Of a stretch of 64,000 nucleotides of DNA, positions 1-55,906 are shown in pieces (positions within the stretch are counted from its first letter, which is position 1; the number at the start of each line of letters is the position of its first letter). Source of the stretch: a virus (Duplodnaviria > Heunggongvirae > Uroviricota > Caudoviricetes); the IMG/VR virus record IMGVR_UViG_3300028602_000005, positions 82,137-146,136 of that record; one strand, given 5' to 3'. The notes beneath the pieces were generated by a model. It did not search any database. It saw only the letters and a program-made list of their open reading frames with translations, and was not told the DNA's origin. The position numbers were made by a program, and so were the translations under genes.

Positions 1-1
1 T

Positions 2-9370: not shown

Positions 9371-9385
9371 AAGGGAGAAATTGAA

Positions 9386-10129
9386 TTGGCTTTTCATCAT
9401 AGTCCTAGAATAATAACAGATGGTTTAATAATGTATTTAGATGCCGGAAATATAAAATCATATCCTAAAACTGGAAATACTTGGTATGATTTAAAAAGAA
9501 CTTATAATGCCACCATTGTCGGACCAAGTTTTAATTCAAATGGATATTTTGATTTTTTAGGTCAGGGAGAATATGATGGTGATCCCACAGGTGATTATAT
9601 TTCTTTAAATAATGATGTTACAAATACTTCTCCCTCGATAAAACCAAATGGCGTTACATATGATTGGTGGATGAAATTCAATGGAAATCAAACACATGGT
9701 CATTGTATTTTATATGGTAGTGGAACAATGAATCATATGGAGTGGCGAGGAACAACAACAGATGGATATTGGAGAACTGAAGCAGCAATACAAAATGGAT
9801 ATTCTTTTGGAGCGAGTGGGGATTTTGGACATCAATTAGAAGAATGGTTTAATATGACAGTTGTTTTTGCAAATAATGAAGAATTTAGACCTGTAAGATG
9901 GTATTTAAATGGTAATCTTTTTTATACTGGAAATATGACAGGAGGAACAAGTCCATCCACCGAATATTTTAGACCAAATGCATTTGGTAGAGCAACTGGA
10001 ACTTCACAATATTTATATTCTGAAAGTTTTTTAGGAAGTTTATCTATTTTTAAAATATATGATCGAGTTTTAACACCAGGAGAAATATTATATAATCATA
10101 TCGCTTTAAGAGGTAGGTTTGGAGTATAA
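9386..10129 (+). CDS. LamG/concanavalin A-like domain protein (tail-associated)
   Basis: SPRIITDGLIMYLDAGNIKSYP N-terminus, GNLFYTG, IFKIYDRVLTPGEI..N..ALRGRFG C-terminus. TTG start. Confidence 0.8.
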   Translation: MAFHHSPRIITDGLIMYLDAGNIKSYPKTGNTWYDLKRTYNATIVGPSFNSNGYFDFLGQGEYDGDPTGDYISLNNDVTNTSPSIKPNGVTYDWWMKFNGNQTHGHCILYGSGTMNHMEWRGTTTDGYWRTEAAIQNGYSFGASGDFGHQLEEWFNMTVVFANNEEFRPVRWYLNGNLFYTGNMTGGTSPSTEYFRPNAFGRATGTSQYLYSESFLGSLSIFKIYDRVLTPGEILYNHIALRGRFGV

Positions 10130-10812
10130 TGTCAACTAAATTTGGATCAAAAATAATTACAGAAGGATTAGTTTTACATTTAGACGCAAAAAATATTAAA
10201 TCATATATTGGAAGTGGAACAGATTGGTTTGATTTAAGTGGAAATGAAAATAATGCCACAATGTATAATTTAACATATGATGATGGATCAATAATATATA
10301 ATGCCGCAAATGATAGAGCCGTAATTTCAAATTATTTTATAACTGGCGCAACATCATTATCTATGTCTGCTTGGTTTATGATGACTGGTGGTGCTGGAAC
10401 ATATAGATGTATTGTTCATAAAGGAACTGATACAAGTGTTGGAAATTCTGAATATTGGACAGGATTTAGTGGGGCAAATACAATTGTTTCGACTATTGGT
10501 GCTGGATCTGGTGTTGGATGGGCTGCTGGAAATACTGGAATATCAGGAATTTTAGATACTTGGTATAATACATGTTCTGTTTGGAATGGATCTAATGTGA
10601 GAGTTTTTGTAAATGGTGATTATAAAATGAATTATAATTTATTATCTTTAACTCAAAATAATCTTTATACTCGTATTGGAGCATCTAGTGATACTGGTGC
10701 ATATCAAGTCATAGGAAAAATTTCAATTGTAAATATTTATAAAAATGTAGCTCTCACAGATTCTCAAGTCAAATCCAACTTCAATGCCCTCAGAGGAAGA
10801 TTCGGTATTTAA
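10129..10812 (+). CDS. LamG/concanavalin A-like domain protein, paralog
   Basis: IITEGLVLHLDAKNIKSY..G..W.DLSGN, WYNTCSVWNG..VRVFVNG, NFNALRGRFG. Confidence 0.85.
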   Translation: MSTKFGSKIITEGLVLHLDAKNIKSYIGSGTDWFDLSGNENNATMYNLTYDDGSIIYNAANDRAVISNYFITGATSLSMSAWFMMTGGAGTYRCIVHKGTDTSVGNSEYWTGFSGANTIVSTIGAGSGVGWAAGNTGISGILDTWYNTCSVWNGSNVRVFVNGDYKMNYNLLSLTQNNLYTRIGASSDTGAYQVIGKISIVNIYKNVALTDSQVKSNFNALRGRFGI

Positions 10813-10825
10813 ATCCAGTTTTATT

Positions 10826-10837
10826 CTTAGAACAAAA
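10826..10837 (+). promoter_or_regulatory. CTTAGAACAAAA motif (putative late promoter)
   Basis: Exact 12-mer, intergenic, upstream of 10874. Confidence 0.6.
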
Positions 10838-10873
10838 TATAAAACCTAAATAATAAGGAATAATCACTAATTT

Positions 10874-13843
10874 ATGGCAATTAAAATATATGGTGGAAAC
10901 ACAGTTGTTTTAGATTCTGGTGATTCTAAACCAACTAATTTACCCGATGATGCAAGAGCTTTTGAAAGAGACACTAAAAAAATTTATATTAAAGCCTCTG
11001 GATCATGGGAAAAAGTTCAAGGATATAGCGGTTATTCTGGTATTAGTGGTTATAGTGGCATTTCTGGATATTCAGGACGATCTGGCTATTCTGGAATTTC
11101 TGGATATTCAGGCATTAGTGGTATCTCAGGCTATTCAGGACGGTCAGGATACTCAGGAATCTCAGGCATTAGTGGTTATAGTGGGACTAGTGGAAAAAGT
11201 GGTTACAGTGGCATTTCAGGCATTTCAGGCTACTCTTCTTATAGCGGTATTAGTGGATATTCAGGAATTAGTGGAATATCTGGTTATTCAGGGAGATCTG
11301 GATACTCAGGGATTAGTGGAATTTCTGGATATTCATCTTATTCTGGTATTTCTGGATATTCATCTTACAGTGGAATTTCTGGATATTCAGGAATTTCAGG
11401 TATTTCAGGATATTCAGGCCGATCTGGTTATTCTGGAAGATCAGGATATTCTGGTATTTCAGGAATTTCTGGATACTCATCTTATTCTGGTATTTCTGGA
11501 TACTCATCTTATAGTGGAATAAGTGGTTATTCTGGTTTTAGTGGAAAATCTGGATATTCAGGCATTTCAGGGATCAGTGGATATTCTGGTATTTCTGGAA
11601 TTTCAGGATACAGTTCATATTCCGGTATTAGTGGATATAGTTCATATTCTGGCATCTCAGGCTACTCAGGACGGTCAGGATACTCAGGAATCTCAGGGAT
11701 AAGTGGTTATAGTGGGACTAGTGGAAAAAGTGGTTACAGTGGCATTTCAGGCTACTCTTCTTATAGCGGTATTAGTGGATATTCATCATATTCTGGAATT
11801 TCTGGATATTCTGGACAAAAAGGAGATATTGGTGAAACAGGATTTCCAGGATCAACTGGTGCATCTGGATATTCTGGAATTTCAGGTTATTCAGGAAAAT
11901 CTGGATATTCTGGAATTAGTGGTATTTCAGGCTACAGTGGAACAATTGGAATTTCAGGATATTCTGGTCGATCTGGTTATTCTGGAATTTCAGGTATTTC
12001 TGGATATTCATCATATTCTGGTATTTCAGGATACAGTTCATATTCTGGAATTTCAGGATATTCTGGACAAAAAGGAGATATTGGTGAAACAGGAGGTCCA
12101 GGAGTTGGAATATCTGGATATTCAGGAATTTCAGGTATTTCTGGTTATTCTGGTAGATCTGGATATAGTGGAATTAGTGGAATTTCAGGTTATAGTGGAA
12201 TAAGTGGAAAATCTGGATATTCTGGCATTTCAGGGATTTCTGGATACTCATCATATTCTGGTATTTCTGGATATTCATCTTATAGTGGAATCTCAGGATA
12301 CTCAGGGATTTCAGGAATAAGTGGATATTCAGGGAGATCTGGTTATTCTGGAATTTCAGGAATTAGTGGATATAGTGGATTTTCATCATATTCAGGTATT
12401 TCAGGATATTCATCATATTCTGGAATCTCTGGATACTCATCTTATAGTGGAATTTCAGGATATTCTGGCATTTCAGGTATTTCTGGTTATTCAGGACGAT
12501 CAGGATATAGTGGAATTTCTGGAATCAGTGGATACTCATCATATTCAGGCATCTCAGGATATTCATCATATTCTGGAATTTCAGGCATCTCAGGATACTC
12601 AGGACGATCAGGATATTCTGGCATTAGTGGAATTTCAGGATATAGTGGAATTTCTGGAATCAGTGGATACTCATCTTATTCTGGAATCTCTGGATACTCA
12701 TCTTATAGCGGTATTTCAGGATATTCTGGAATTTCAGGAAAATCAGGATATTCTGGCATTGCCGGTTCAACAGGAACTTCTGGATATTCTGGAATTTCAG
12801 GAAAATCAGGATATTCTGGCATTGCTGGTTCAACTGGAACTTCTGGTTATTCTGGAATTTCAGGAAAATCAGGATATTCTGGCATTGCTGGTTCAACTGG
12901 AACTTCTGGTTATTCTGGAATTTCAGGAAAATCAGGATATTCTGGCATTGCAGGTTCAACAGGATCAACTGGATCAATAGGAACTTCTGGATATTCTGGA
13001 ATTTCAGGAAAATCAGGATATTCAGGCATTGCTGGTTCAACAGGCTCAACTGGAACTTCTGGATATTCAGGCATTGCCGGTTCAACAGGATCAACAGGAA
13101 CTTCTGGGTATTCAGGAATTTCAGGCATTTCTGGATATTCTGGAATTGTTGGGACTTCTGGATATTCTGGTAGATCTGGATACTCAGGACGATCAGGGTA
13201 TTCTGGTCAAGCATTGGCTGTAAATGTAAGTTCTGATAATAGGATGGCCAGATATCATTCAACAAATCAAATTCAGGGAACTGGAATTTCAGTTGATGAT
13301 TCAGATAATGTCACTGGAATGAATTCTCTGGCTTTAAAAACTGGAACTTTACAAAGTGGATATACTCCTTCTGGAACAGCTGCCCTTGAATATAATGGAT
13401 ATTTTTATCCCACAAGAGTTTATAATGCTTATTATAATGACTTTGCAGACTTTCAAATTTTAGATGATATTTTATTCTATGGAAAATGTTATTATCAATC
13501 TAAATTCGGATTAAAGATTTGTAATGAAAAATGTCAAAAAGGAATTGTCGGAATTGCATCTGATACTTATGGTCCTTCTACTGGATTTGAAAAAGGAAAA
13601 ATTCAAATTCCTATTTCTGTGGCAGGATGGGTTTTAGCATTTGTCGATAAAGAATATGATTCTGGAACTCCTTTAACAAATAATGAAAATGGTGATTTAA
13701 CTGAAATGTCTTTAATTGAAAAATTATTTTATCCAGAAAGATTAGTGGCTGTTTATATGAGAAAAGAAGAAAAAATGTATTTTGGATTAAAATCTGGATC
13801 TCCGATAAAAGTAAATGGAAGACATTGGGTTAAAGTTAAATAG
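10874..13843 (+). CDS. Second Gly-X-Ser collagen-like fibre protein with putative C-terminal chaperone (Peptidase_G2/IMC-like) domain
   Basis: About 720 aa of GXS repeat, then YPTRVYNAYYNDFADF..GIVGIASDTYG..IPISVAGWV..W(V)KVK, resembling tail-spike intramolecular chaperones. Confidence 0.65.
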   Translation: MAIKIYGGNTVVLDSGDSKPTNLPDDARAFERDTKKIYIKASGSWEKVQGYSGYSGISGYSGISGYSGRSGYSGISGYSGISGISGYSGRSGYSGISGISGYSGTSGKSGYSGISGISGYSSYSGISGYSGISGISGYSGRSGYSGISGISGYSSYSGISGYSSYSGISGYSGISGISGYSGRSGYSGRSGYSGISGISGYSSYSGISGYSSYSGISGYSGFSGKSGYSGISGISGYSGISGISGYSSYSGISGYSSYSGISGYSGRSGYSGISGISGYSGTSGKSGYSGISGYSSYSGISGYSSYSGISGYSGQKGDIGETGFPGSTGASGYSGISGYSGKSGYSGISGISGYSGTIGISGYSGRSGYSGISGISGYSSYSGISGYSSYSGISGYSGQKGDIGETGGPGVGISGYSGISGISGYSGRSGYSGISGISGYSGISGKSGYSGISGISGYSSYSGISGYSSYSGISGYSGISGISGYSGRSGYSGISGISGYSGFSSYSGISGYSSYSGISGYSSYSGISGYSGISGISGYSGRSGYSGISGISGYSSYSGISGYSSYSGISGISGYSGRSGYSGISGISGYSGISGISGYSSYSGISGYSSYSGISGYSGISGKSGYSGIAGSTGTSGYSGISGKSGYSGIAGSTGTSGYSGISGKSGYSGIAGSTGTSGYSGISGKSGYSGIAGSTGSTGSIGTSGYSGISGKSGYSGIAGSTGSTGTSGYSGIAGSTGSTGTSGYSGISGISGYSGIVGTSGYSGRSGYSGRSGYSGQALAVNVSSDNRMARYHSTNQIQGTGISVDDSDNVTGMNSLALKTGTLQSGYTPSGTAALEYNGYFYPTRVYNAYYNDFADFQILDDILFYGKCYYQSKFGLKICNEKCQKGIVGIASDTYGPSTGFEKGKIQIPISVAGWVLAFVDKEYDSGTPLTNNENGDLTEMSLIEKLFYPERLVAVYMRKEEKMYFGLKSGSPIKVNGRHWVKVK
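12719..12960 (+). repeat. Near-perfect 63-bp tandem repeat (GYSGISGKSGYSGIAGSTGTS), about 4 copies
   Basis: ggaatttcaggaaaatcaggatattctggcattgcNggttcaac recurs every 63 bp. Confidence 0.9.
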
Positions 13844-13844
13844 T

Positions 13845-13856
13845 CTTAGAACAAAA
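13845..13856 (+). promoter_or_regulatory. CTTAGAACAAAA motif (putative late promoter of the Cys-repeat/rSAM operon)
   Basis: Exact 12-mer immediately after the stop of 10874..13843. Confidence 0.6.
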
Positions 13857-13898
13857 TAATAGAAAATAAAACAAAATATTGAAGGATATTTATTATAA

Positions 13899-15839
13899 AT
13901 GGCAGATCAAACTTGGACTGATGAAACTGTAGTAGTTTCGCTTAATGTTGGAAGTGGTATCTCTAACGGAATAATTAGTAGTGATAATTTCGGTGTTATT
14001 TATTATGTATCAGCATCTTTTGAAAATAGATATCAAATATTTGCTTTAAATAGTAATCTTTTATCATGGAATAGTGCTGGAAGTAGTTTTGATTATTACT
14101 TTGATTTTGCTTTATCTATTGCTAATATAGTTAATGGAGTTCCTATTTATTTTTATCCTTGGGCAATATACTCAGGATCAAATGTTGGAAGTATTAATAC
14201 TATTTCAAATACACATCATTATCCAAATTATAGATTAGAATGTATTTCAACCTCTACATCAACATTTGATTTAAAACTTCAATATTGGAACGGATCTTCT
14301 TTAATTTTAGATAGAACTATTTTAAGCGCATTAAGTGAAAATGTTTATTATGGGGTAAATATTACATTTGATACTTCTGTTGGTAATGGAAGATTTATTA
14401 TAGATATTTTTAATAAAACAACAAATGTTCAAATATGTCATTATACATATGATCTTCTAACCACAATAAATTTTACAAAAACATATGAATTTTCAACTTT
14501 ATATCTTACTTCAAGTACATCATCTGCTTCAGCAACAACAAGATATTTTGAAAAAAGAACTGCGACTAAAATAGAAGACACATATTATGATGAACTCCAA
14601 GATGCTGTAAATGCTTGGCAAACTGCTTATGGATTAACAAATTCAACTTGGACACAAGATGAGCCAGATACAGATGATTCAATTTTGGAAGTCACAACTC
14701 TTGAATTGGAAACGGCAATTGAATATTTAGAATTTTTGGCTGGAAAAACATCAAGTTTATATAAAATTTCAGGAACAAAAACAAATTCAAATTTAGATTT
14801 AACGACTTTTACAGAAGTTGATCCAGATGGAATTTTAACAATCGCAAGTAATTCTTTAACAGCGACAGGATCTTCTTCAGCTAATGAAAATTATGTTTAT
14901 AAAGATTTTGGGGTTGGTTATTTTAATAATTTTTGTATAGATTTTAAAATAAATGCTTCATTTTTTAATTTAGGCGCATATGCTTTAGGTTTCACAAATG
15001 ACAATAGTTCAGATATAAGATCGGTAAGTGGAACATATATAGGGTTATCTTTCTGGTCTGGACTTGGATCTGCCGGTATGCTTCAATATACAACAGCACA
15101 TAGAATAAATCTGAATTTAAATACAGATTATTATGTGAGATTTATTAAAATAGATTCTTTTAGTACATATGGGCAAATTTTTTGTTTTGTTTATAGTGAT
15201 TCAAGATATAATACTTTAGTTAATTATTTTACGGCTTATTTAACTGAACCATATGGAATTTCTTATAGATATTTATATATCTATTCTGATGTAAATGGAA
15301 TTGGAACAAATACTCAATTTGTTTCATCAGATTATAAAATCAGAAATTTAAATTCAATTGATTTTCATGATTTAGAATTATTAAGATATAAAGTAAATTT
15401 ATTACAATCGACATATTGTTATTTATGTGACACTTGTGACACTGAGACTTGTGATTGTAATCCCGCTTGTAATGTTGACGGATGTGATTGTGACGGAATT
15501 TGCGATACAGACACATGTACTTGTCATGGGACTTGTAATAGTGATGGATGTACTTGTCATGGGTTATGTAATGGAGATACTTGTACAAATTGTAACGCAT
15601 CATGTTATTCTTATTCAAAAGTTTGTGTTCTTTGTTATTTTTCATGTTATTCTGACGCATGTACTTGTAATGGATCTTGTAATGGTGATTCATGTACTTG
15701 TCATGGTGAATGTAATTCAGACTCATGTACTTGTAATTCTGGGTGTGATAATGATGTCTGTAGTGTTTGTAATGGATCTTGTAATGTTGAAGGATGTACA
15801 AAATGTGACGGAACTGCTTATCGATATCCTTGGACCTAA
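13899..15839 (+). CDS. Putative virion protein with C-terminal Cys-rich repeat tail (candidate radical SAM substrate A)
   Basis: Beta-rich, lectin-like body. ELQDAVNAWQTAY and LELLRYKVNLL helices. About 35 Cys in 12 units, ending YRYPWT. Confidence 0.75.
   Translation: MADQTWTDETVVVSLNVGSGISNGIISSDNFGVIYYVSASFENRYQIFALNSNLLSWNSAGSSFDYYFDFALSIANIVNGVPIYFYPWAIYSGSNVGSINTISNTHHYPNYRLECISTSTSTFDLKLQYWNGSSLILDRTILSALSENVYYGVNITFDTSVGNGRFIIDIFNKTTNVQICHYTYDLLTTINFTKTYEFSTLYLTSSTSSASATTRYFEKRTATKIEDTYYDELQDAVNAWQTAYGLTNSTWTQDEPDTDDSILEVTTLELETAIEYLEFLAGKTSSLYKISGTKTNSNLDLTTFTEVDPDGILTIASNSLTATGSSSANENYVYKDFGVGYFNNFCIDFKINASFFNLGAYALGFTNDNSSDIRSVSGTYIGLSFWSGLGSAGMLQYTTAHRINLNLNTDYYVRFIKIDSFSTYGQIFCFVYSDSRYNTLVNYFTAYLTEPYGISYRYLYIYSDVNGIGTNTQFVSSDYKIRNLNSIDFHDLELLRYKVNLLQSTYCYLCDTCDTETCDCNPACNVDGCDCDGICDTDTCTCHGTCNSDGCTCHGLCNGDTCTNCNASCYSYSKVCVLCYFSCYSDACTCNGSCNGDSCTCHGECNSDSCTCNSGCDNDVCSVCNGSCNVEGCTKCDGTAYRYPWT
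15417..15815 (+). repeat. CxCxxxCxxDx / CxxCxxxCxxDx coding repeat
   Basis: For example CTCHGTCNSDG-CTCHGLCNGDT-CTNCNASCYSY. Confidence 0.95.
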
Positions 15840-15873
15840 AAAATAAAATATTTTAAATGGAGATTAAAAATTA

Positions 15874-18213
15874 ATGGCTTATCAAACTTTTACAGATGAT
15901 TTAAAAACTGTTTATGATATTTCACAATATGGAACTATTTTTATTGAAAATATATTTAATTGTCGAATAGATGATTCTTATTATAGATGTGATCCTAATG
16001 GATATGGTGATCAGGGATATATTGATGAAAATGAATCAGTATTTTTTAGAATATCTGAAAAAACAGAAAAAATATCATGGTTAAATCCTTTCATTTCTTT
16101 AAATGGTATTGGATCTGATGAAAAGAAAAGTGGATATATAAAACAATATAATTATAAAGATACATTTTCTTGTTTATTTAAATTTGATATTTTTAGTACA
16201 TCTGATTCAACGGGTGAAATTTATTTTGGATTTTCAAATAGAGAAGGATTTTTAAAAGATTTTAATGATAATTATTTAAGTTTAATTATGGGTAAAATAA
16301 AATGTGAAGATAATAATTTTAAATTATCTATAGTTAATCAATACGGAAATACTTTTAATGAAACAGAATCATATATAACATTAAATTATGATACCATTTA
16401 TTATATCCAATTTTCAAAAAAATATAATACTTTTAGTTCTCATGACTTTAAAATAAGTGTTTTTAATTCATCAGAAGAATTTATAGATTCAATAAGTATT
16501 AATTTTAATCACAATATTTCTTTTGAAGGATTTTATTATAAAAATTCATATTTTTATTATTTTATGTATCCTCATGATACAAATCTTTCAGATAAAAAAG
16601 TAAATGGATGGTTTTTAGAACATACATTTTTTCCTGTTTCAGAATATAATTTTAAAAAATCAACTTATTACGGTGAATTACAAAATGCGGTAAATGCTTG
16701 GGAAACAGCATATAATATAAATAATACAAATTGGACATATTCAAATAATGATCCAAGCTCAAATGCAGTTTTTACATCTGTTTTAGAATTAAGAGGGGCA
16801 TTAGATAATTTACATGATAATTTGGCTTCACCATATTGGCCACATGAAACATGGGCTACAGATATTTCTTATGATTTGAGTTCAGCGGGTGAGAAAGATA
16901 ATTTAAATAGAATTTCATATAATTCAAACTCAATAATTTCATCTTTTATAGATGTTTATGATGATGGATATATAGCTGGAAATATTCCAGAATTAACTGA
17001 TTTCTTTTATAAATTTTCATTTAAATACACATCAGAAATAGGGAATCCTATATATATGATAACACCATTAATTACTCTTTCAAAAAATTATGTTGGTGGT
17101 GTTTTTTCTTTATGTTATAATAATATTGCTTTTGTTTCAGTTATTTTATATAATTCAACTTCAGATTCAAGACCGAAAATAGGAATTGTCAGAAGTGATG
17201 GAAATTATTACTACGGTTCAGTTTATTTATCATATAATACAACATACTATGTAAAATTCTTTAGAAATATAAATATAGGACCATTTGGGAGATATTTCAT
17301 TTATATTTATAGTGATAGTAATTATAATAATTTAATTGACGGGGTAACTATTTACGGAAGTGAAGTTTCAAATTTTGAAGATCTTAGATTTGATGTTTTT
17401 TCAGCGGTAAATGGAATGAATGGTCATTGTTTTATAAGACCTGTTAATATTTATAATGTACAACATAGTGTTTCTAATCCAAATAATTTTCAATCTTATA
17501 CTTTAGAAAACTTGAGAACAGTTATGAATAATTTACAGATAAGTCATTGTTATTTATGTGATTCTGGTGATTATCTCTCATCATGTTCTTGTGATGGATC
17601 TTGTAATTCAGACACATGTTCTTGTGATGGAGTATGTAATGGAGACACATGTTCTTGTAATGGGACTTGTAATGGGGATATTTGTTCAAATTGTTACTCA
17701 TCATGTTATTCTTATTTAAAAAGTTGTAGTTTATGTGATCACTCCTGTTATAATGACACTTGTATTTGTAATGGAATTTGTAATTCAGACTCATGTTCTT
17801 GTAATGGGACTTGTAATGGAGATACTTGTTCTTGTGATGTAGAGGGAGGATGCTCAACAGACTCATGTGATTGTGACGGATCTTGTAATGGAGACTCATG
17901 TTCTTGTAATATTGGGTGTAATTCTGACGGATGTGATTGTAACGCCTCTTGTAATGGGGATGCGTGTTCAAATTGTTATTCATCATGTTACTCTTATGAT
18001 GGAAAAAATTGTTATCTTTGTAATATGTCTTGTTATTCTGATGTTTGTACTTGTAATGGAATTTGTAATTCAGACTCATGTTCTTGTGATGGGTCATGTA
18101 ATTCTGATACTTGTTCTTGTGATGGGTCATGTAATTCTGATACTTGTTCTTGTTATTCAGAAGAAAGTTGTATTCAATGTAATGCGACTGTTTATAGATA
18201 TCCTTGGTCATAA
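15874..18213 (+). CDS. Paralogous putative virion protein with longer Cys-rich repeat tail (candidate substrate B)
   Basis: ELQNAVNAWETAY and LENLRTVMNNL match 13899. About 54 Cys in about 18 units, ending YRYPWS. Confidence 0.75.
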   Translation: MAYQTFTDDLKTVYDISQYGTIFIENIFNCRIDDSYYRCDPNGYGDQGYIDENESVFFRISEKTEKISWLNPFISLNGIGSDEKKSGYIKQYNYKDTFSCLFKFDIFSTSDSTGEIYFGFSNREGFLKDFNDNYLSLIMGKIKCEDNNFKLSIVNQYGNTFNETESYITLNYDTIYYIQFSKKYNTFSSHDFKISVFNSSEEFIDSISINFNHNISFEGFYYKNSYFYYFMYPHDTNLSDKKVNGWFLEHTFFPVSEYNFKKSTYYGELQNAVNAWETAYNINNTNWTYSNNDPSSNAVFTSVLELRGALDNLHDNLASPYWPHETWATDISYDLSSAGEKDNLNRISYNSNSIISSFIDVYDDGYIAGNIPELTDFFYKFSFKYTSEIGNPIYMITPLITLSKNYVGGVFSLCYNNIAFVSVILYNSTSDSRPKIGIVRSDGNYYYGSVYLSYNTTYYVKFFRNINIGPFGRYFIYIYSDSNYNNLIDGVTIYGSEVSNFEDLRFDVFSAVNGMNGHCFIRPVNIYNVQHSVSNPNNFQSYTLENLRTVMNNLQISHCYLCDSGDYLSSCSCDGSCNSDTCSCDGVCNGDTCSCNGTCNGDICSNCYSSCYSYLKSCSLCDHSCYNDTCICNGICNSDSCSCNGTCNGDTCSCDVEGGCSTDSCDCDGSCNGDSCSCNIGCNSDGCDCNASCNGDACSNCYSSCYSYDGKNCYLCNMSCYSDVCTCNGICNSDSCSCDGSCNSDTCSCDGSCNSDTCSCYSEESCIQCNATVYRYPWS
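17548..18182 (+). repeat. CxCxxxCxxDx / CxxCxxxCxxDx coding repeat
   Basis: For example CSCDGSCNSDT-CSCDGVCNGDT-CSCNGTCNGDI. Confidence 0.95.
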
Positions 18214-18249
18214 AAATATAAAATAAAAAATAGAGAGGAAAATAAAAAT

Positions 18250-19272
18250 ATGATAATTGTAAATGATTTTGAAATTAAAGATTCAATTTTAGGAAATGAA
18301 AATAATCTTACTTTTGGAATTTTTAGTGGTCCTGTTATAAGTAATAATAAGTTATCTTTGTCTCCTGAATTTGATTATATGTTAAATTATATAAAGCCTT
18401 TGGTTGATAAAGTTATTTATGTTGTTGTTATAGATTCTTGTGTAAATCTAGAATCTTCAATTGAGAAAAATCAAATTATAGATTTTAGTGCTTTAGAAGA
18501 TTTAACAAATGATAATTTTAAAAATAATATAGATTATTGTTTAGTTATTAATAATTTAAAAACAGATAGTGATTATATTTTATCAAAATTAACTGAAATA
18601 AATTCAGTAAAAACAACATCTAAATATGATGGAAGTTATGGATGGTTTGGATTAAATTATAGAATTTTTAAAGCATTAAATAATTTGAGCATCAATAATA
18701 ATATTTGTATTGGATTTAAATCAAAAAATGATTTATTTAGAGTTATTGGTGAATATAAAGCATATGAAGAATTTAGAAATAGTGGAAATTATTTATTTAG
18801 TAATACAAGTAATCCTGGAAAAAGATTAGTGACTCCTTTATTGAGAGATGTTGATGGATTATTACCTTCATCATTTGTAGAAAATGAAGAAATTCATAAT
18901 ATAAGATTAAATCTTAAAAAATATATGGAATCTGTTTCTTTTGAAGATAAAACAGTAAGAGATTTTATTGAAGAAGTTAATAAAAATTTAGATAGACATA
19001 ATATTAATTATAAGTATTTTGTTACATTTGATGATTTTGAATTATTTGTAAGAGGAACAGTTGATTTATCAAAAGTAAATAAAGGTTGTATGAGAGTTAT
19101 TTATGGAACTGATAATTTATCAGATCCTTATTGGGAAGAGATTAAATTTATAGGATTAGATGAGAATAAATGGTTTAATATTGTAACATTATCAGATATA
19201 GATTTAACAAAATTTTCTGTTAATACTCTTCCATATTTATATGAAAAACAAATTATTGAGAAAGGAATATAA
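18250..19272 (+). CDS. Degenerate pantoate-beta-alanine ligase (PanC)-like fold protein 1
   Basis: PLLRDVDGLLPSS resembles PanC PxxRxxDGLAxSS, and ICIGFKSKNDLFRVI resembles ACFGEKDxQQLxxI. The N-terminal HxGH motif is absent. Confidence 0.55.
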   Translation: MIIVNDFEIKDSILGNENNLTFGIFSGPVISNNKLSLSPEFDYMLNYIKPLVDKVIYVVVIDSCVNLESSIEKNQIIDFSALEDLTNDNFKNNIDYCLVINNLKTDSDYILSKLTEINSVKTTSKYDGSYGWFGLNYRIFKALNNLSINNNICIGFKSKNDLFRVIGEYKAYEEFRNSGNYLFSNTSNPGKRLVTPLLRDVDGLLPSSFVENEEIHNIRLNLKKYMESVSFEDKTVRDFIEEVNKNLDRHNINYKYFVTFDDFELFVRGTVDLSKVNKGCMRVIYGTDNLSDPYWEEIKFIGLDENKWFNIVTLSDIDLTKFSVNTLPYLYEKQIIEKGI

Positions 19273-20782
19273 AAAATTGAAAGAAATTGAATTTCCAAAA
19301 CCAAGAGCTTGTACTATTGATTTAACTGAAGGTTGTAATCTGGCGTGTGACTACTGTTTTACCCATTCTCTTCATAATAGAAAAGTAATCTCTGAAGAAA
19401 TGGGTAAAACAATCATAAGATTATGGCTTGAAAAAACAGATTATCAAAATAGAAATGATGTAGAGATAGGATTTTGGGGTGGAGAACCCTTATTAGAATT
19501 TGATTTATTAAAAAAATTAGCTAATTACACAAAAGAGATTACTGAAAATAAAGTTGATAAATTCTCTATTACGACAAATGGCACTTTATATACAGAAGAA
19601 ATTGTCGAATGGAGTCTTGAAAATAAAATGGCATGTTTAATATCATTAGATGGAAATGAAGAATCTCATGATATGCATAGAAAATTCAAAAATGGAAAAG
19701 GTTCATGGAAAGTTATTGATTCTAATATTAGAAAAGCAATGAAAATTAATCCTAATCAAAGAGTCAGAGTTTCAATTGCTGCCGATACTCTTCATTTATT
19801 ATATGATTCATTTATTTATATTATAGAAGATTTGGGAATTAAATCATTTGCTTTTTCTCCTGTTTTCGAAGGTGATTGGAATCAAGAAAACTGGAAACTT
19901 TTAGAATATCAATTTAATAGATTTGCTGATTATACAATAAAAGAAGCTAAAAAAGGAAATCATATTATATTGAAACATTTTAAAGATGAAATGATTAATG
20001 GAGGAAATTTAAAAGAAAAACAAAATCCATGTGGTGCTGGAAATGGATATTCAGCATGGAGTGTTGATGGAATTCAATTTCCATGTCATAGATTTAATAA
20101 ACATGGATTATCAACAGAAGAAAGATTAAAATCACCATTTGTCATAGGGAGAATTATAGATAATAAATATTTTATGTATAATGAGGCAAGAGAACCTTTT
20201 GTTTCATTTAAAGATAAGACACCAATAAAATGTGAAGTCTGTAATATATTTAGAAGATCATCATGTGTTGGAAATTGTTATGCGGTAAATTATGATTTAA
20301 CTGGTGATATTAATGTATCTCCAGATGTTTGTTGTACATTTAATAAAATTCAACATAAAATTGGTATGAGATTAGAAAGAGAATATAGAGATAATAATAT
20401 TAAGATGCCATTTGAGACTGTTAGAGATAAGAAAAATACTCCTTCTGGTTGTGTTTGTTATAATATGTGTTATGCAGAAGGGACAGAAAATGAAATAATT
20501 CATTTTGATAAAAGAAATAATGGAACATGTAATTGTTATCAAGTTTCTTATTCAGATAATATAGGATTTGAAAATTCAAGGAAAAAAAATGAAATTCAAA
20601 AAGATGATGATATGTTAAAAACATTTTTGAATTTGTCAAAGAAAATCTTAGCAAATAATGATAAAATTGATAACAAAACTAAAGAGATGAAAGATCTTGA
20701 AAATGATGTTTTATCTAAAACAATTGGTTTGTTAGAAAGAAAAAATGAATGTAAAGGAGAATGTTGTAAATGCAAGAAGTAG
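19241..20782 (+). CDS. Radical SAM/SPASM maturase 1 with extra C-terminal Cys motif
   Basis: CNLACDYC, FWGGEPLL, TTNGTL, ISLDG..HD..R. SPASM CGAG..FPCHRF..CEVC....SCVGNC. An alternative TTG start at 19277 follows AAAGGA. Confidence 0.95.
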   Translation: MKNKLLRKEYKKLKEIEFPKPRACTIDLTEGCNLACDYCFTHSLHNRKVISEEMGKTIIRLWLEKTDYQNRNDVEIGFWGGEPLLEFDLLKKLANYTKEITENKVDKFSITTNGTLYTEEIVEWSLENKMACLISLDGNEESHDMHRKFKNGKGSWKVIDSNIRKAMKINPNQRVRVSIAADTLHLLYDSFIYIIEDLGIKSFAFSPVFEGDWNQENWKLLEYQFNRFADYTIKEAKKGNHIILKHFKDEMINGGNLKEKQNPCGAGNGYSAWSVDGIQFPCHRFNKHGLSTEERLKSPFVIGRIIDNKYFMYNEAREPFVSFKDKTPIKCEVCNIFRRSSCVGNCYAVNYDLTGDINVSPDVCCTFNKIQHKIGMRLEREYRDNNIKMPFETVRDKKNTPSGCVCYNMCYAEGTENEIIHFDKRNNGTCNCYQVSYSDNIGFENSRKKNEIQKDDDMLKTFLNLSKKILANNDKIDNKTKEMKDLENDVLSKTIGLLERKNECKGECCKCKK

Positions 20783-21894
20783 ATTTTAAAACAATGACTT
20801 TAGGAGAAAAAATAGATTTTGAAATGGGAGAGGAAGATGGAAGAAAAACAGGATGTAAGGGATTTGAAACATATCCTTTATTCTGGATTAATATGTTTTT
20901 AAATTATACTTGTACTAGAAGTTGTACTAATTGTTTTGCTGGTGGTGGAAAAAATAATTTCGTAATGCCAGATGATGTTTATAATAGATTATTAAATTGG
21001 TTAGTAGAAGTTTATAATCTTCATGGATTTAAGTATTCTTGTTTTGTTTATTTGGGTGGTGAACCTCTTTTAGAATTTGATAAAATTGTTGGGATAATGG
21101 AACATATGGAAAAAAATAATGTTCAAGGGGTTTATCACCATATTTCATCTAATTTTGATTTGATTGATAAAATAGATTTGAATAGATTAGTTTATCCTTC
21201 TTTAATGTCTTTTAATATAACAGATTTATCATTTGATGAAGTTTCGAAAAGATCAAAATATTTTGGTAAAATGAAAAATGTAGTTCAACAAGAAGTTAAA
21301 TTAACAGCATATGAATCTAATCTCCCAAGATTAAAAGAATTAGCAGAATTTGGAATTTCAAATGGATTTAGAGTAAGAATTTATAGAGATCAAACACAAC
21401 ATTCAAATGAAGAATATAAAACTAAATTTATAAAAGCTCTGCATGAATATTTAGATGTTTTTGAAAAATATATTGAAAAGGGATATCATACAAATGTAAA
21501 ATATGTTATTCTTGATGCTTTAATTCCAAATGTTCCAAATAGAACTTGTGGGAGAGCAAATCTTAATGTTTATCCAGATGGATCTGTCGGTCCTTGTATA
21601 AGAGCTTTAGATGATATTAAAGGAACATTATGGACACCGAATCCTTTAAAATTAGCTTTAGATGAAAAATATATTTATTCTTCAAATTCAAAATATTGTC
21701 ATGATGATTGTAGAGAATGTAAAGTTAAACATACATGTAAAGGTGGATGTCCTTATGATAAATCTTTGGCTTATGGTGAAATTAAAGAAGGGATGAAAAG
21801 TCCTTGGTGTAGAGTTTATAAAGAAATTGTCCCAAGAATTGATAAAATTGCAAATAAAAATAGAAAAGGGAATTCAATTACAATAGGGATTTAA
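20770..21894 (+). CDS. Radical SAM/SPASM enzyme 2 (divergent)
   Basis: CTRSCTNC, YLGGEPLL. SPASM TCG..VYPDGSVGPC..CRECKVKHTCKGGCP..WC. Confidence 0.92.
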   Translation: MQEVDFKTMTLGEKIDFEMGEEDGRKTGCKGFETYPLFWINMFLNYTCTRSCTNCFAGGGKNNFVMPDDVYNRLLNWLVEVYNLHGFKYSCFVYLGGEPLLEFDKIVGIMEHMEKNNVQGVYHHISSNFDLIDKIDLNRLVYPSLMSFNITDLSFDEVSKRSKYFGKMKNVVQQEVKLTAYESNLPRLKELAEFGISNGFRVRIYRDQTQHSNEEYKTKFIKALHEYLDVFEKYIEKGYHTNVKYVILDALIPNVPNRTCGRANLNVYPDGSVGPCIRALDDIKGTLWTPNPLKLALDEKYIYSSNSKYCHDDCRECKVKHTCKGGCPYDKSLAYGEIKEGMKSPWCRVYKEIVPRIDKIANKNRKGNSITIGI

Positions 21895-21906
21895 GGAGAT
21901 TAAAAG

Positions 21907-22929
21907 ATGAAAATTTTAACAGTTGATAATATACATGATAGTGATTTATTTTCAGATGATGTTAAAACGATTGGAGTTTTAATTTTATTAATGGTTGATT
22001 ATGAATATCTTTTTTTAAGTAAAAATTTTTTAAATAAGATAAATATGATTAAACCAATGGTTGATAAAATGGTTTGTTTATTTTCTCCGACATGTAATGT
22101 TTATTCAAATAATATAACAAATAAAGATGTTAAAAAAAATATAATTCAAGATCCAGATTATCTTAAATCTAAAAGTGAAGAGAACTTTAAAATTCTGGAA
22201 GAAAATATAGATTATATTTCATTTAATAATTTTTCTTATTCAAGAACCGAAGAAATAGAAAATATAATTAAAACTTTAGATATAGATACAATAAAATTAA
22301 AACAAAGTTTATTTATAGAAAGTTATCCAGTATCAAGTATTGAAAATGTTTTTAGATTTCTTCCTGAAGAAAAAACAATTGTTTTTAGAGATAAAAATTT
22401 TATGTTAAATCATTGGATAAATGAATTTCAATTAAAAAGACAAATAAGACATGAATATAATCTTAATTTATTTAAATCAGTTGGGAGAATTATTCTTCCA
22501 ACTTTTAGAGATGATAGTGGATTAATTTGTTCAGAAGGTGAAAATGATCATTCTATTCTGTCAGAAGAAATAACTAATGCTTTAATTAATTTAAAGTCAT
22601 ATCTTAGAGATTATAATGTAATTAATAAAACTCTTAAAGAAATTACTTTAGATTTGAATAAAAACATTCCATTAAAAATAGAAGATTCAAAATATTTTGT
22701 TTTTTGTGCAAATCTTGAAAATTCATTATTGAATACTTATGAAAATAAAATAATAGATTTTGAAAAAGGATATGTTGTTGTAAGAATATATAAAGAAGGT
22801 TCTCCTATTGTTAATGAAGTAAAATTTATAGGATTAGATGAAAGTAAATTTTTTGATTTAGAAACTGTAAATGATATTAATGAAGAAATCACTAAAGATA
22901 ATTTACTTAATTTTGCAAAATGGGATTAG
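21907..22929 (+). CDS. Degenerate PanC-like fold protein 2 (paralog of 18250)
   Basis: IVFRDKNF and LPTFRDDSGLICS resemble PanC motifs. Shares KP(L/M)VDK and E(I/V)KFIGLDE with 18250. No HxGH. Confidence 0.55.
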   Translation: MKILTVDNIHDSDLFSDDVKTIGVLILLMVDYEYLFLSKNFLNKINMIKPMVDKMVCLFSPTCNVYSNNITNKDVKKNIIQDPDYLKSKSEENFKILEENIDYISFNNFSYSRTEEIENIIKTLDIDTIKLKQSLFIESYPVSSIENVFRFLPEEKTIVFRDKNFMLNHWINEFQLKRQIRHEYNLNLFKSVGRIILPTFRDDSGLICSEGENDHSILSEEITNALINLKSYLRDYNVINKTLKEITLDLNKNIPLKIEDSKYFVFCANLENSLLNTYENKIIDFEKGYVVVRIYKEGSPIVNEVKFIGLDESKFFDLETVNDINEEITKDNLLNFAKWD

Positions 22930-24419
22930 AAAGGAAAATAAATATAATGAATGATGATTTTGAAATTCCACATCAAAGTTCATGTACGATAGATTTAACA
23001 GAAGAATGTAATATGGCATGTGATTATTGTTTTACACATTCTCAACATAACAAAAAAGTTTTATCTGAAGAAATGGGTAAAAAAATAATTGATCTTTGGT
23101 TTTTAAATGTTATGTTAGATTCTTCTTCTAATAAAACTCCAAATATTTCATTTTGGGGTGGAGAACCATTATTAGAATTTGAATTAATGAAAAAACTTAT
23201 TAAATATGGAGATGAAATATCTAATAATACACTTACATATGGTGGAACTACAAATGGAACTTTATACACAGCAGAAGTCGCTGAATGGTGTTTAAAAAAT
23301 AAATCTCCTATGTTAGTTTCATCTGATGGTGTTGAAGAAGCTCATGATAAACACAGAAAATTCAAAAATGGAAGAGGGACTTGGAAAGTAATAGATAAAA
23401 ATTTAAGAGAAATTGTTAAATTCTTTCCAAAACAAAAAGTTAGATTATCTATATCAACAGATAACTGTCATTTGTTTTATGATTCTTTTTTATATTTTAT
23501 TGAAGGTTTGGGAATGAAGGAATTTTCTTTTTCTCCTGTTTTTGAAGATGATTGGACAAAAGAAAAATTTGATATTTTAGAAGAACAATTTAATAAATGT
23601 ATTGACTATATTTTAAAGGAAGCTAAAAGAAATAATTTTATAGATTTAAAACATTTTACAGATATAATGTTAAGAAATGGATCAGAACAGATTATAAGAA
23701 ATCCATGTGGTGCTGGAACTGGTTATTCTGCTTGGTCTATTGAGGGATTACAATTTGCATGTCAAAGATTTAATAAACATGGTTTATCATTAGAAGAAAA
23801 GTTAAAATCTCCTTTCCTTATAGGAAGGATAAAAGATGATAAATATGAAATATATAGAGAACCAAGACAGCAATTTATTAATTTTAAAGATAAATTAGAG
23901 GATAGGTGTGGTCATTGTTCGCTATTAAAAAATTCAAATTGTTATGGAAATTGTTTTTCTGTTAATTATGATTTAATGGGAGATATTAATAAAACTCCAA
24001 AAGTATGTTGTGATTTTAATAAACTTCAAAATGATATGGGATTAAAATTAAGAAAATTATTTGATGATAATAAAATTATTCACCCTAAAATGAAACAAAA
24101 ACAAATTAAAAATGGATGTGGTCTTTGTTATAATATGTGTTATTCTGAGGGAACAGATGAAGAGATTACAATAATAGATAGAAGAAAAAATCATTATTGT
24201 AATTGTGATGTTATTGAATATTCAGATAATCTTAAAAGATTAAATTGTAGATCTATTAAAGAAATTGATGATGATAGTAAAAAATTATTTAAATCATTAG
24301 AGACATGCAAAAAGATTTTAGAAACTAGAGATATGAATAAAAGAGAAGACTTAATTAAAATGGAAGATAAAGTCTTCAATGATACAATAGAATCAATAAA
24401 AAAATTCACAAAAAAATAA
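22920..24419 (+). CDS. Radical SAM/SPASM maturase 3 (close paralog of 19241)
   Basis: CNMACDYC, FWGGEPLL, TTNGTL. CGAG..FACQRF..CGHC....NCYGNC, plus C-terminal CGLCYNMCYSE. Confidence 0.95.
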   Translation: MGLERKINIMNDDFEIPHQSSCTIDLTEECNMACDYCFTHSQHNKKVLSEEMGKKIIDLWFLNVMLDSSSNKTPNISFWGGEPLLEFELMKKLIKYGDEISNNTLTYGGTTNGTLYTAEVAEWCLKNKSPMLVSSDGVEEAHDKHRKFKNGRGTWKVIDKNLREIVKFFPKQKVRLSISTDNCHLFYDSFLYFIEGLGMKEFSFSPVFEDDWTKEKFDILEEQFNKCIDYILKEAKRNNFIDLKHFTDIMLRNGSEQIIRNPCGAGTGYSAWSIEGLQFACQRFNKHGLSLEEKLKSPFLIGRIKDDKYEIYREPRQQFINFKDKLEDRCGHCSLLKNSNCYGNCFSVNYDLMGDINKTPKVCCDFNKLQNDMGLKLRKLFDDNKIIHPKMKQKQIKNGCGLCYNMCYSEGTDEEITIIDRRKNHYCNCDVIEYSDNLKRLNCRSIKEIDDDSKKLFKSLETCKKILETRDMNKREDLIKMEDKVFNDTIESIKKFTKK

Positions 24420-24425
24420 ATGAAA

Positions 24426-24448
24426 GTGGGAGAATAAACTTCTCCCAC
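24426..24448. terminator. Hairpin between convergent genes, ending the rSAM operon
   Basis: GTGGGAGAA-taaac-TTCTCCCAC, with A-rich and T-rich flanks. Confidence 0.75.
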
Positions 24449-33315: not shown

Positions 33316-33684
33316 ATGAATTTTTCAGATATGACTAAATATCAAAAAAACAATCCATTAATAGGTTTAAAAAGACCTAGATGTGAATGTAACTCAGAAA
33401 TGGGACTAAGATTAGAACCAGATAATAGCATATATAGTACAACGTGGGTTTGTAGAAAATGTAGCAATGAATATTATTCAAAACTAACGGTTGAAGAATG
33501 GGCAAATAGATTGAAAAATGAAAAAGTGAGTGAGCTATCTCAAGAAATACACAAATACGAAAAAAATTATGGAAAAGAAAAATGCCCTTTATGTGAAGCT
33601 ATTTTAAAATTTAAATCACCATGCTGTGGTCAAGAAAAAACTTTAGTTTATTGTTCAATATGTGGATATAAGGAATATAGATAA
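33316..33684 (+). CDS. Double zinc-ribbon protein
   Basis: CEC..CRKC and CPLC..CC..CSIC. Confidence 0.65.
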   Translation: MNFSDMTKYQKNNPLIGLKRPRCECNSEMGLRLEPDNSIYSTTWVCRKCSNEYYSKLTVEEWANRLKNEKVSELSQEIHKYEKNYGKEKCPLCEAILKFKSPCCGQEKTLVYCSICGYKEYR

Positions 33685-54490: not shown

Positions 54491-55906
54491 ATGATAGAAA
54501 TTGTTACAACATTACCTACATTCGATTCTTCTTTACACAAAAATAGAATCTTATATCCCACAGATGAAAAAATTAATTATTATGGACATACAGAATACAA
54601 TGTATGGATTCCATTAAGTGGAAAAACATATAATTTATACACATCAGATGAAATAACCACAAATAAAGTCGTTTATATTGATGATGATGGATTTTTATAT
54701 ATAAGTGATAATTCAGATTCTGATACTTTAAATGTAATAGGAATTACGGTTACTTTAGGATCATATGGTTCAAAGGTTTTAGTTTTTGGAGAAGGGTGTA
54801 TTTTAAAAAATATTTTAGTTGGGGCAACAGTTGGTTCATCATATTATTTGGGAACAAATGGGGTATTAACATCATCAATGCCTTTAGAAAATGTTGTCAA
54901 AATTGGAACTGCGATAAATTCTACAGATTTAAAAATAGAAATTCAGACTCCTTCATTATCTTCATCTGTCCCTACAGGAACAATAATTCCGTGGGCATCA
55001 GATACAATTCCTGATGGGTGGTTAGAATGTAATGGTGCTGCCGTTTCAAGTTCAGATTTTCGAAATCTTCATTCTTTTTTATCAGATAAATATGGAAATG
55101 GATCTTCAAATGAACAATATTGGGATAGAAATGATTGTGTTTCATATAATGGGTGTGATTGTGATGTAGAATGTTATGTTGACTCATGTTCTTGTGATAC
55201 CGCTTGTGACTCTTATGAGGGAATTGTTAACACTATTACTCCTATATGTACTACGTGTTATCCAGCAGGTTTTACTGGATGTTTTGCTTGTAATAGTATT
55301 AAAGATATTGGAATAGACGCATGTACTCAATATATGGCGGTTACTGATGCTGATTGTGAAGAATGTTATAATGTTTGTTATCCTGACGTTTGTACTTGTG
55401 AAGGAAATTGTTATACAGACACATGTTCACAATGTTTTTCACAATGTCATCCAGATAACTGTTCCGTTTATACTACTGATCCTGATTATGGAACAGAAGA
55501 TTTTAATGTCCCAGATTTAAGAGGATATTTTATCAGAGGATGGAATAATGGTAAAACTCTTTATAATGGGGTTATTCACTATAGAGGTGGAGATCCATCA
55601 CTCCCAAATGATATAGTCCAATATAGAGATCCAGACTGTTTGACTAGATCAGCGTATAATGTCACCGGATCAAATATTTCAAGTGGTGATAATATAGGGA
55701 CAATTCAAGATTCTGAATTTTCTTCTCATTCTCATGTATATACACAGCATTGTGGTGGAGCAAGCACAATTCCAGGTTATCCTCAAACTTATGACGGAAA
55801 TGTTTATCCTTATGCAAATGCGACTTATAAAGAAACAAATCAACTTTCAAGTATAAATGAAACTAGACCATCTAATATATCTGTTCGTTTTATTATAAAA
55901 ACATAA
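54491..55906 (+). CDS. Phage tail-collar domain protein 2 with inserted Cys-rich repeat
   Basis: PTGTIIPW..PDGWLECNG..KYG, then 22 Cys, then FNVPDLRGYFIRG..ETRPSNI. Confidence 0.88.
   Translation: MIEIVTTLPTFDSSLHKNRILYPTDEKINYYGHTEYNVWIPLSGKTYNLYTSDEITTNKVVYIDDDGFLYISDNSDSDTLNVIGITVTLGSYGSKVLVFGEGCILKNILVGATVGSSYYLGTNGVLTSSMPLENVVKIGTAINSTDLKIEIQTPSLSSSVPTGTIIPWASDTIPDGWLECNGAAVSSSDFRNLHSFLSDKYGNGSSNEQYWDRNDCVSYNGCDCDVECYVDSCSCDTACDSYEGIVNTITPICTTCYPAGFTGCFACNSIKDIGIDACTQYMAVTDADCEECYNVCYPDVCTCEGNCYTDTCSQCFSQCHPDNCSVYTTDPDYGTEDFNVPDLRGYFIRGWNNGKTLYNGVIHYRGGDPSLPNDIVQYRDPDCLTRSAYNVTGSNISSGDNIGTIQDSEFSSHSHVYTQHCGGASTIPGYPQTYDGNVYPYANATYKETNQLSSINETRPSNISVRFIIKT

Follow-up and report, generated by a model that had tools for sequence, protein, structure and literature searches.

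A phage operon pairing Cys-repeat proteins with radical SAM/SPASM enzymes: a candidate cassette for thioether stapling of fibre-associated proteins

Cys-repeat proteins and radical SAM enzymes in one operon

The window analysed here, a 64,000-nucleotide stretch of tailed-phage DNA (Caudoviricetes), spans bases 82137-146136 of the 254,910-bp IMG/VR virus record IMGVR_UViG_3300028602_000005, which is estimated to be 82% complete. It contains a seven-gene unit on the + strand (13899-24419) that encodes two paralogous Cys-repeat proteins (A and B), three radical S-adenosylmethionine (SAM)/SPASM enzymes (rSAM1, rSAM2 and rSAM3) and two paralogs of 340 amino acids, X1 and X2 (Table 1). An initial annotation, made from the sequence alone, had described these genes as one unit running from a motif at 13845 to a terminator, and its gene order and coordinates are borne out. 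X1 overlaps rSAM1 by 32 nt, rSAM1 overlaps rSAM2 by 13 nt and X2 overlaps rSAM3 by 10 nt; the remaining intergenic gaps measure 12-36 nt, and the hairpin that follows rSAM3 has a 9-bp stem with T runs on both strands, facing a convergent gene.

The Cys residues of A and B are concentrated in their C-terminal tails, as had been claimed. A has 39 Cys, 35 of which lie within residues 507-636 (nt 15417-15806), and B has 60, with 54 inside residues 559-769 (nt 17548-18180). The two proteins share 31% identity over the body and 55% over the tails, the tail of A forming one module and that of B two modules in tandem. The repeat unit has 11 residues, C-x-C-[NDH]-G-x-C-N-x-D-x, and appears in the DNA as a 33-nt period. 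The centre of the module is a variant, C-S-N-C-Y-S-S-C-Y-S-Y...C-x-L-C-x-x-S-C-Y-S-D, and its terminus reads C-x-x-C-x-x-T-x-Y-R-Y-P-W-[TS]. In both A and B the array is preceded by a conserved helix motif, E-L-R-x3-N-x-L-Q-x3-C-Y-L-C. Neither protein gave a meaningful match to NCBIfam at E≤0.1, the companion and target models of the CXXX-repeat families included. An AlphaFold2 model of the N-terminal region of A was too poor for use (predicted local distance difference test score (pLDDT) 34), and a low-confidence ESM Atlas model showed a weak resemblance to viral LamG- or adaptor-type proteins.

Open reading frames (ORFs) of 119-229 amino acids in other frames or on the other strand overlap the Cys arrays at 15340-15846 and 17522-18226; these were rejected as genes, being artefacts of the repetitive TG[TC]-rich sequence. 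Across the wider family most units have an N-x-S/T sequon in their core, C-N-x-[ST]-C, and N-glycosylation of the arrays is conceivable from the sequence. In one related locus (L010) a glycosyltransferase family 2/methyltransferase gene lies between the rSAM genes and the Cys protein.

All three enzymes carry the CX3CX2C motif (at residue 32 in rSAM1, 48 in rSAM2 and 30 in rSAM3) and the seven-Cys SPASM pattern for two auxiliary 4Fe-4S clusters (CX9-15GX4C ... CX2CX5CX3C ... C), in agreement with the initial annotation, and belong to the SPASM subfamily (TIGR04085/PF13186). The CX2CX5CX3C spacing is canonical in rSAM2, and reads CX2CX7CX3C in rSAM1 and rSAM3. Superfamily membership is clear for rSAM1 and rSAM3, which scored 54.2 and 40.9 bits with PF04055 against a cut-off of 29.5. 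The more divergent rSAM2 reached only 15.6 bits, below the cut-off although its CX3CX2C motif is present, and scored 40.3 bits with the TIGR04085 SPASM model (cut-off 27).

The best-scoring NCBIfam families for rSAM1 and rSAM3 are all thioether formers that had been named beforehand, namely PapB, the SCIFF maturase, the CXXX-repeat maturase and QhpD. Equivalog membership does not follow from these scores, which are 216 bits for rSAM1, 197 for rSAM3 and 50 for rSAM2 with PapB (NF047865; cut-off 340), and for rSAM1 and rSAM3 167 and 137 bits with the SCIFF maturase ScfB/CteB (TIGR03974; cut-off 425), 159 and 125 bits with the CXXX-repeat maturase (TIGR04115; cut-off 350) and 152 and 119 bits with QhpD (TIGR03906; cut-off 453). 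Thus of the profile matches that had been anticipated, SPASM is found and membership of the CXXX system (TIGR04114-04119) is not. Among solved structures the nearest relative is CteB, a thioether former (5wgg), with E=3e-31 across the rSAM core and the SPASM domain.

A further feature of the rSAM family is a C-terminal extension of about 130 amino acids with five nearly invariant Cys (C-x-C-Y-N-x-C-Y ... C-x-C-Y), found at residues 404-432 of rSAM1 (window 20450-20540) and 400-429 of rSAM3 (window 24115-24210). Its sequence mimics one to two substrate repeat units, and it could provide a further metal site, act as a template or inhibit its own enzyme as a pseudo-substrate. Among 5.8 billion proteins rSAM1 and rSAM3 are each other's best match, at 54% identity with the next best at 50% or less, and they are sisters in the tree with 100/100 support. 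As A and B are paralogs, and X1 and X2 likewise (28% identity), substrate, partner and enzyme were duplicated together in this lineage.

Related cassettes and the PanC-like partners

More than 2,000 homologs of rSAM1 were found, the nearest of which come from metagenomes and are 43-50% identical. Genomic contexts were taken from assemblies, IMG/VR and GTDB genomes, all ORFs were scanned, and a protein beside the rSAM gene was called Cys-rich if it had at least 14 Cys per 100 amino acids. This gave 27 non-redundant loci, of which 22 had adequate flanks and were counted; L011, L017, L019, L032 and L033 were left out, their contigs being cut about 0.4-2.4 kb from the rSAM gene or on the flank that should hold the substrate gene. 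A Cys-rich repeat protein adjoins the rSAM homolog in 20 of the 22 loci, the exceptions being L016 and L021. Across the 255-kb genome that holds the window, a scan found such ORFs at a rate of 3 in 305, all three being A, B and the protein encoded at 54491-55906. The initial annotation had named a lack of co-conservation of the enzymes with Cys-repeat genes in related genomes as one finding that would refute its interpretation; co-conservation is what the survey shows. Chance co-location of the two kinds of gene is rejected by the same survey.

The arrays of the relatives follow a common grammar. Taken together, the 190 units of 22 proteins yield the consensus C-[ST]-C-[ND]-x-[TS]-C-[YN]-[GS]-[YDQ]-[ST], with N or D after the second Cys in 84% of units, forming an [N/D]-x-x-C motif. 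Ten of the relatives' Cys proteins, as well as A and B, end in Y[RE]YPW[TS] or LYPWT. In all proteins of this YPWT type the array directly follows the helix motif, which in its general form reads E-[LI]-R-x3-N-x-[LM]-Q-x3-C-Y-[LQV]-C, and further upstream these proteins share E-[LM]-Q-x-A. In A, B, L003 and L029 the two motifs are separated by an inserted beta-rich domain or carbohydrate-binding module (CBM). These conserved flanking motifs could act as recognition elements. Homologs of rSAM2 are also present in related cassettes.

Matches of at least 39% identity in GTDB genomes all lie on contigs of metagenome-assembled genomes no longer than 9.8 kb. Against cultured-phage records, megablast of the operon gave no match and tblastn of rSAM1 only matches of 23-30% identity. 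The family therefore looks restricted to uncultured phages. Searches of viral contigs for related loci with single proteins or with the tail alignment returned nothing, and the rSAM family alignment alone succeeded.

Some related cassettes contain additional genes. An MFS_1-like membrane protein of 335-343 amino acids occurs in several (regions L004:4224-8078, L006:7337-10004, L009:11242-13290 and L012:6054-7974), a second PanC-like paralog in L004, L006 and L009, and a protein of 394-431 amino acids with a weak C-terminal radical-SAM match in L004, L008 and L030; none of these three types is present in the window operon. On the closest short contig (L029:6027-7833) UPF0489 (FlmR/OhkR-N-like) and SAM-dependent methyltransferase-like proteins are encoded downstream of the rSAM gene, and are possibly further tailoring genes. 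In L010 (11450-14377) a T4-type portal gene is split by an intein, with Pfam Intein_splicing matching between two Portal_T4 matches.

Directly upstream of the rSAM gene, and often overlapping it, the relatives encode a partner protein of 260-320 amino acids, although several cassettes have none that is recognisable. The 9 partners that were aligned all have an invariant HxGH motif. One of them (L006:9114-10004) matches the Pfam family Pantoate_ligase (PF02569) with 30.7 bits against a cut-off of 20.7, over profile positions 2-223 of 268, and the partner profile matches solved pantothenate synthetases (E=1.8e-7), bringing the K-D and DGL..SS motifs into register. The resemblance of the relatives' partners to PanC (PF02569; PDB 3MXT, 3N8H) extends along most of PanC, and the motifs that bind nucleotide are preserved. 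To our knowledge, no PanC-like protein has been described as the partner of a peptide or protein maturase.

X1 and X2 are a different matter. The initial annotation had called both of them PanC-like, a label that applies to the relatives' partners and reaches X1 and X2 only indirectly. X1 and X2 have no match in Pfam, NCBIfam or PHROG and fall outside PF02569, and neither a word-seeded search of 5.8 billion proteins nor an exhaustive HMMER search of 1.8 billion found a homolog. Scans of viral and metagenome data with the X alignment recovered only one contig, which was already known. Their sole homolog is encoded in the cassette most like this one, in the corresponding place (L030:3978-5009). 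It matches X1 with E=4e-10 and X2 with E=5e-8, carries HSGH, and ranks third among the outside matches to the profile of the PanC-like partners (E=0.01 in a set of 801 sequences); its match to Pfam PanC is weak (E=0.12). In place of HxGH, X1 has FSGP and X2 has LILL, and the remnants F-K-S-K-N-D and R-D-V-D-G-L-L-P-S are colinear with, and spaced like, the K-D and DGL..SS motifs of the partners. Comparison of X1 and X2 with the partner profile by hhalign, with or without the L030 homolog, was not significant (probability 2-3%). An AlphaFold2 model of X1 was too poor for use (pLDDT 38), and an ESM Atlas model (pLDDT 0.34) had only weak Rossmann-like look-alikes. X1 and X2 are probably degenerate PanC-fold proteins that have lost the capacity to bind nucleotide.

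Fibre context and control signals

The operon directly follows tail-fibre and LamG genes, as had been noted, with a LamG_3 pair (9386-10812) and then a collagen-repeat fibre gene before A. The fibre protein ends in ...VNGRHWVKVK, and an end of the form ...NGRHWVKV[KR] recurs on the genes that precede Cys proteins in L004, L006, L029 and L030. This forms part of a shared C-terminal domain, ...W-G-P-x-n-V-N-G-R-H-W-V-K-V-[KR], seen at window 13244-13843, L004:111-1811, L006:5016-6416, L029:2294-3049 and L030:69-1220, which belongs to no Pfam or PHROG family and may be a docking partner of the Cys proteins.

Elsewhere in the window a third copy of the Cys module is inserted in a tail-collar fibre protein (54491-55906). 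The insertion has 22 Cys (residues 216-324, nt 55136-55462) and the same grammar as A and B, and it splits the match to the collar family PF07484 into two stretches (54.3 bits, cut-off 24). The two collar paralogs that flank this gene are free of the Cys insertion. In relatives the module is carried by tail-collar (L010), CBM_4_9 (L003) and C1q-like (L025 and L018) proteins. The putative targets are large proteins, as had been supposed, with lectin- or fibre-type carriers and lengths in A and B of 646-779 amino acids, rather than short peptides. Their position in the genome and the carrier domains of the relatives suggest that A and B are virion structural proteins.

The motif at 13845, an 11-mer (CTTAGAACAAA), had been read as a late motif. 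As a recurrent element it is real, with seven exact copies in the window; at up to one mismatch there are 10 matches against 3.6 expected, a number reached in 0 of 100 shuffles. Of the + strand copies, five precede + strand gene starts by about 40-55 nt, namely those of the fibre gene (10874), A (13899), the genes at 33316 and 41395, and a collar gene (53460). Standing before the operon and before structural genes, it is a promoter-like element common to both and probably a phage promoter element. A scan for sigma-70-like promoters showed no enrichment (92 found, 96 expected).

No RNA dataset is listed as containing the stretch. A DNA run from a landfill metagenome contains 73% of its sampled words and may be the source sample; landfill is an anoxic setting, which is compatible with oxygen-sensitive enzymes. 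The GC content is 35-37% over the collagen-like fibre genes (window 1-14000) and 20-28% elsewhere, with a strong positive GC skew; the raised value is consistent with repeats rich in Gly codons rather than with a foreign origin.

Table 1. Positions of the operon, its control signals and the fibre-related genes in the window.
Feature	Position	Strand	Description
LamG_3 proteins (two)	9386-10129, 10129-10812		upstream of the fibre gene
Collagen-repeat tail-fibre protein	10874-13843	+	989 aa; Pfam Collagen E=5e-88, many PHROG tail-fibre families
Promoter-like motif CTTAGAACAAA	13845-13855	+	opens the spacer before A
Substrate A (putative)	13899-15839	+	646 aa; N-terminal beta-rich domains, helix motifs 1 and 2, Cys-triad array, YRYPWT end
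Substrate B (putative)	15874-18213	+	779 aa; paralog of A, tail module duplicated, YRYPWS end
X1	18250-19272	+	340-aa partner overlapping rSAM1
rSAM1	19241-20782	+	513 aa; radical SAM/SPASM, PapB/CteB-like core
rSAM2	20770-21894	+	374 aa; divergent radical SAM/SPASM enzyme
X2	21907-22929	+	340 aa; paralog of X1 overlapping rSAM3
rSAM3	22920-24419	+	499 aa; in-paralog of rSAM1
Intrinsic-terminator-like hairpin	24426-24448	bidirectional	between convergent genes
Tail-collar fibre protein with Cys insertion	54491-55906	+	Pfam Collar E=1.3e-14; PHROG 523 tail collar fibre E=8e-29
Copies of CTTAGAACAAA	10826, 13845, 33276, 41349, 52352, 53411	+	
Copy of CTTAGAACAAA	52642	-	

Proposed maturation, alternatives and significance

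The closest comparison is with PapB, which belongs to the best-scoring family and acts on PapA, the precursor of freyrasin. PapB is likewise an rSAM/SPASM enzyme whose substrate has tandem Cys...Asp motifs and receives many crosslinks, and it joins Cys to the carbon next to the carboxylate of an Asp or Glu that is C-terminal to the Cys (PMC12373016). In contrast to the CX3D motif of PapA, the units here offer CxxD and/or [ND]xxC with three Cys per 11 residues, the substrate is a phage protein of 646-779 amino acids, and the system includes a Cys-bearing enzyme extension of 130 amino acids and a PanC-like partner. The streptococcal ranthipeptide enzyme NxxcB joins Cys to the C-beta of the Asn in an NxxC motif and also accepts Asp or Gln in its place (PMC9389541). 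The likeness to NxxcB/NxxcA lies in the [N/D]-x-x-C motif; NxxcA is a short peptide with a single motif. CteB (PDB 5WGG; TIGR03974), the closest solved structure and a thioether former, differs in having an RiPP (ribosomally synthesised and post-translationally modified peptide) recognition element (RRE) and in its substrate, the 45-amino-acid SCIFF peptide, which is unrelated to A and B. The CXXX-repeat system (TIGR04115 with TIGR04114/04117), third best among the NCBIfam families, also places an rSAM maturase beside regularly spaced Cys repeats, but there Cys is every fourth residue and here the spacing is 2/4/5.

The initial annotation knew of no characterised example of such a system. This holds for phages, for which our search of the literature on phage rSAM enzymes and Cys-rich virion modification found no description, one cyanophage paper listing a 'radical SAM maturase' merely as an antibiotic-synthesis gene. 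It does not hold at the protein level in cells, where QhpC and the CrpA/CrpC pair are precedents; CrpC installs ranthionines on the 29-kDa Cys-rich protein CrpA of Methanococcus voltae (PMC13692751). CrpC/CrpA and QhpD/QhpC resemble the phage operon in that rSAM/SPASM enzymes form thioethers on a full-size Cys-rich protein. The likeness is at the level of the system, and those systems are cellular, have no fibre context, Cys-triad unit or YRYPWT end, and in the case of CrpC include an RRE. The general definition of a RiPP does not fit the phage system either, given substrates of 646-779 amino acids and the lack of both an RRE and a protease gene in the operon.

Our favoured interpretation, to which we assign a probability of roughly 0.6, is that this is a phage late-gene cassette that matures fibre-associated proteins post-translationally by thioether stapling. 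The rSAM/SPASM enzymes would take a side-chain hydrogen from an acceptor residue and couple that residue to a Cys thiol bound at an auxiliary Fe-S cluster. Two acceptors are candidates, either or both of which could be used: the [N/D] that precedes the third Cys by three residues (NxxC), and the Asp that follows that Cys by three (CxxD). Each join would form a non-reducible beta- or gamma-thioether (ranthionine) bridge. Many such bridges could yield a rigid mini-solenoid or knob, proof against proteases and reductants, in the reducing cytoplasm, where disulfides cannot form. Recognition may proceed via the helix motif, the YRYPWT end, the substrate-like extension of the enzyme, or X1 and X2, which are probably catalytically dead descendants of a PanC-like protein and may be adaptors for enzymes that have no RRE. 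The recurrence of the same gene pairing in many unrelated phages suggests that phages probably harden fibre-tip proteins by this chemistry.

A number of observations weigh against thioether stapling. The residue at the CxxD acceptor position is Asp here and often Tyr, Gln or Thr in relatives, which makes the acceptor uncertain. Other reactions of SPASM enzymes include C-C and C-O linkage, epimerisation and the oxidation of Cys to formylglycine, and the phage enzymes score below the equivalog cut-offs of every characterised thioether family. The N-terminal RRE that the initial annotation had proposed to look for is absent from rSAM1 and rSAM3: the alignment begins at residue 97 of CteB and at model position 96-101 of TIGR03974, and only about 22 residues precede the rSAM core. 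The N-terminal domains of A and B have no family match in Pfam, PHROG or NCBIfam. Finally, metal binding, or oxidation to disulfides once the cell has lysed, would be just as possible for Cys arrays of this density.

The last of these points can be extended to a full alternative, in which the arrays bind metal or Fe-S clusters or form disulfide-locked solenoids, on the model of the beetle antifreeze protein with its 12-residue Cys-containing coils, and the rSAM enzymes perform some other modification, such as epimerisation, C-C or C-O crosslinking of Tyr and Cys, oxidation of Cys to formylglycine, or methylation. The CxC and CxxxC spacings, at about 27% Cys, do resemble metal-binding arrays, and phage fibres are known to bind metals (Fe in T4 gp37 and Zn in gp12). 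The sub-cut-off rSAM scores are in keeping with a different chemistry, and Tyr, the commonest residue directly after the third Cys across the family (112 of 190 units), would suit aromatic crosslinks. On the other hand, the nearest characterised relatives of the enzymes all form thioethers on Cys. Three Cys per unit is an odd number for pairing, and disulfides are not formed in the cytoplasm, where the rSAM enzymes act. Formylglycine is disfavoured by the score of the anaerobic sulfatase-maturating enzyme (anSME) model, 76 bits against 216 for PapB, and by the lack of a C-x-P/A-x-R sulfatase motif. Overall we consider this alternative unlikely.

The partners suggest another possibility, that the PanC-like proteins are active ATP-dependent carboxylate-amine ligases and that ligation at Asp side chains or at the YRYPWT carboxyl end is the key event, with the rSAM step secondary. 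The relatives' partners retain the HxGH, K-D and DGL..SS motifs and match Pantoate_ligase and solved pantothenate synthetases, and no part of the substrates is as well conserved as the C-terminus. However, HxGH is gone from X1 and X2 alike, yet the Asp residues and the C-terminal motif are still present, and ligase activity therefore cannot be essential here; the related cassettes without a recognisable partner also speak against a central ligation, which we regard as distinctly improbable. Less probable still is that the product of the cassette is diffusible and RiPP-like, for instance a bacteriocin or a peptide that manipulates the host, set free from the C-terminus of A and B, rather than a virion component. 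The enzyme families are classic RiPP maturases, the flanking motifs resemble leader or follower recognition sequences, and the MFS-like membrane protein of related cassettes could be an exporter. Yet the operon has no protease or exporter, and the substrates, which measure 250-780 amino acids and bear domains of lectin, collar or C1q type, lie within tail-fibre modules. The copy of the Cys module that is inserted inside a collar domain could not be released as a tail peptide, and the promoter-like motif is common to structural genes.

Thioether stapling may also be placed in a broader setting. We suggest tentatively, at a little short of even odds, that a widespread, phage-restricted system uses an RRE-less rSAM/SPASM enzyme and a PanC-derived partner to turn a portable Cys-triad module on fibre tips into a thioether-stapled mini-solenoid. 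The module would be bracketed by the dedicated helix motif and the YRYPWT end, and the partner would be an active ligase in many phages and a dead adaptor in this one. Ranthipeptide-type maturation is itself of a known kind, its chemistry coming so far from small bacterial peptides and a few cellular proteins. New here are the Cys-triad grammar and the conserved motifs that bracket it, enzymes that lack an RRE and carry an extension resembling the substrate, a pair of PanC-like partners that are probably degenerate, and the presence of three module carriers in one genome.

If thioether stapling is confirmed, radical-SAM RiPP chemistry would become a general tool of virion construction, and no earlier case would exist of a viral receptor-binding structure crosslinked by enzymatic radical chemistry. 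The field would gain RRE-independent recognition and a PanC-fold partner, the latter as a new partner class for RiPP-type maturases, along with a large natural set of protein-sized ranthionine substrates built on a simple repeat grammar. The repeat units and the promiscuous-looking enzymes are attractive for protein stapling and for the engineering of robust phage receptor-binding proteins. For the phages themselves, thioethers would give fibre tips the stability that disulfides give secreted proteins, and would explain how reduction-proof, cysteine-locked tips can be made inside a reducing cytoplasm.

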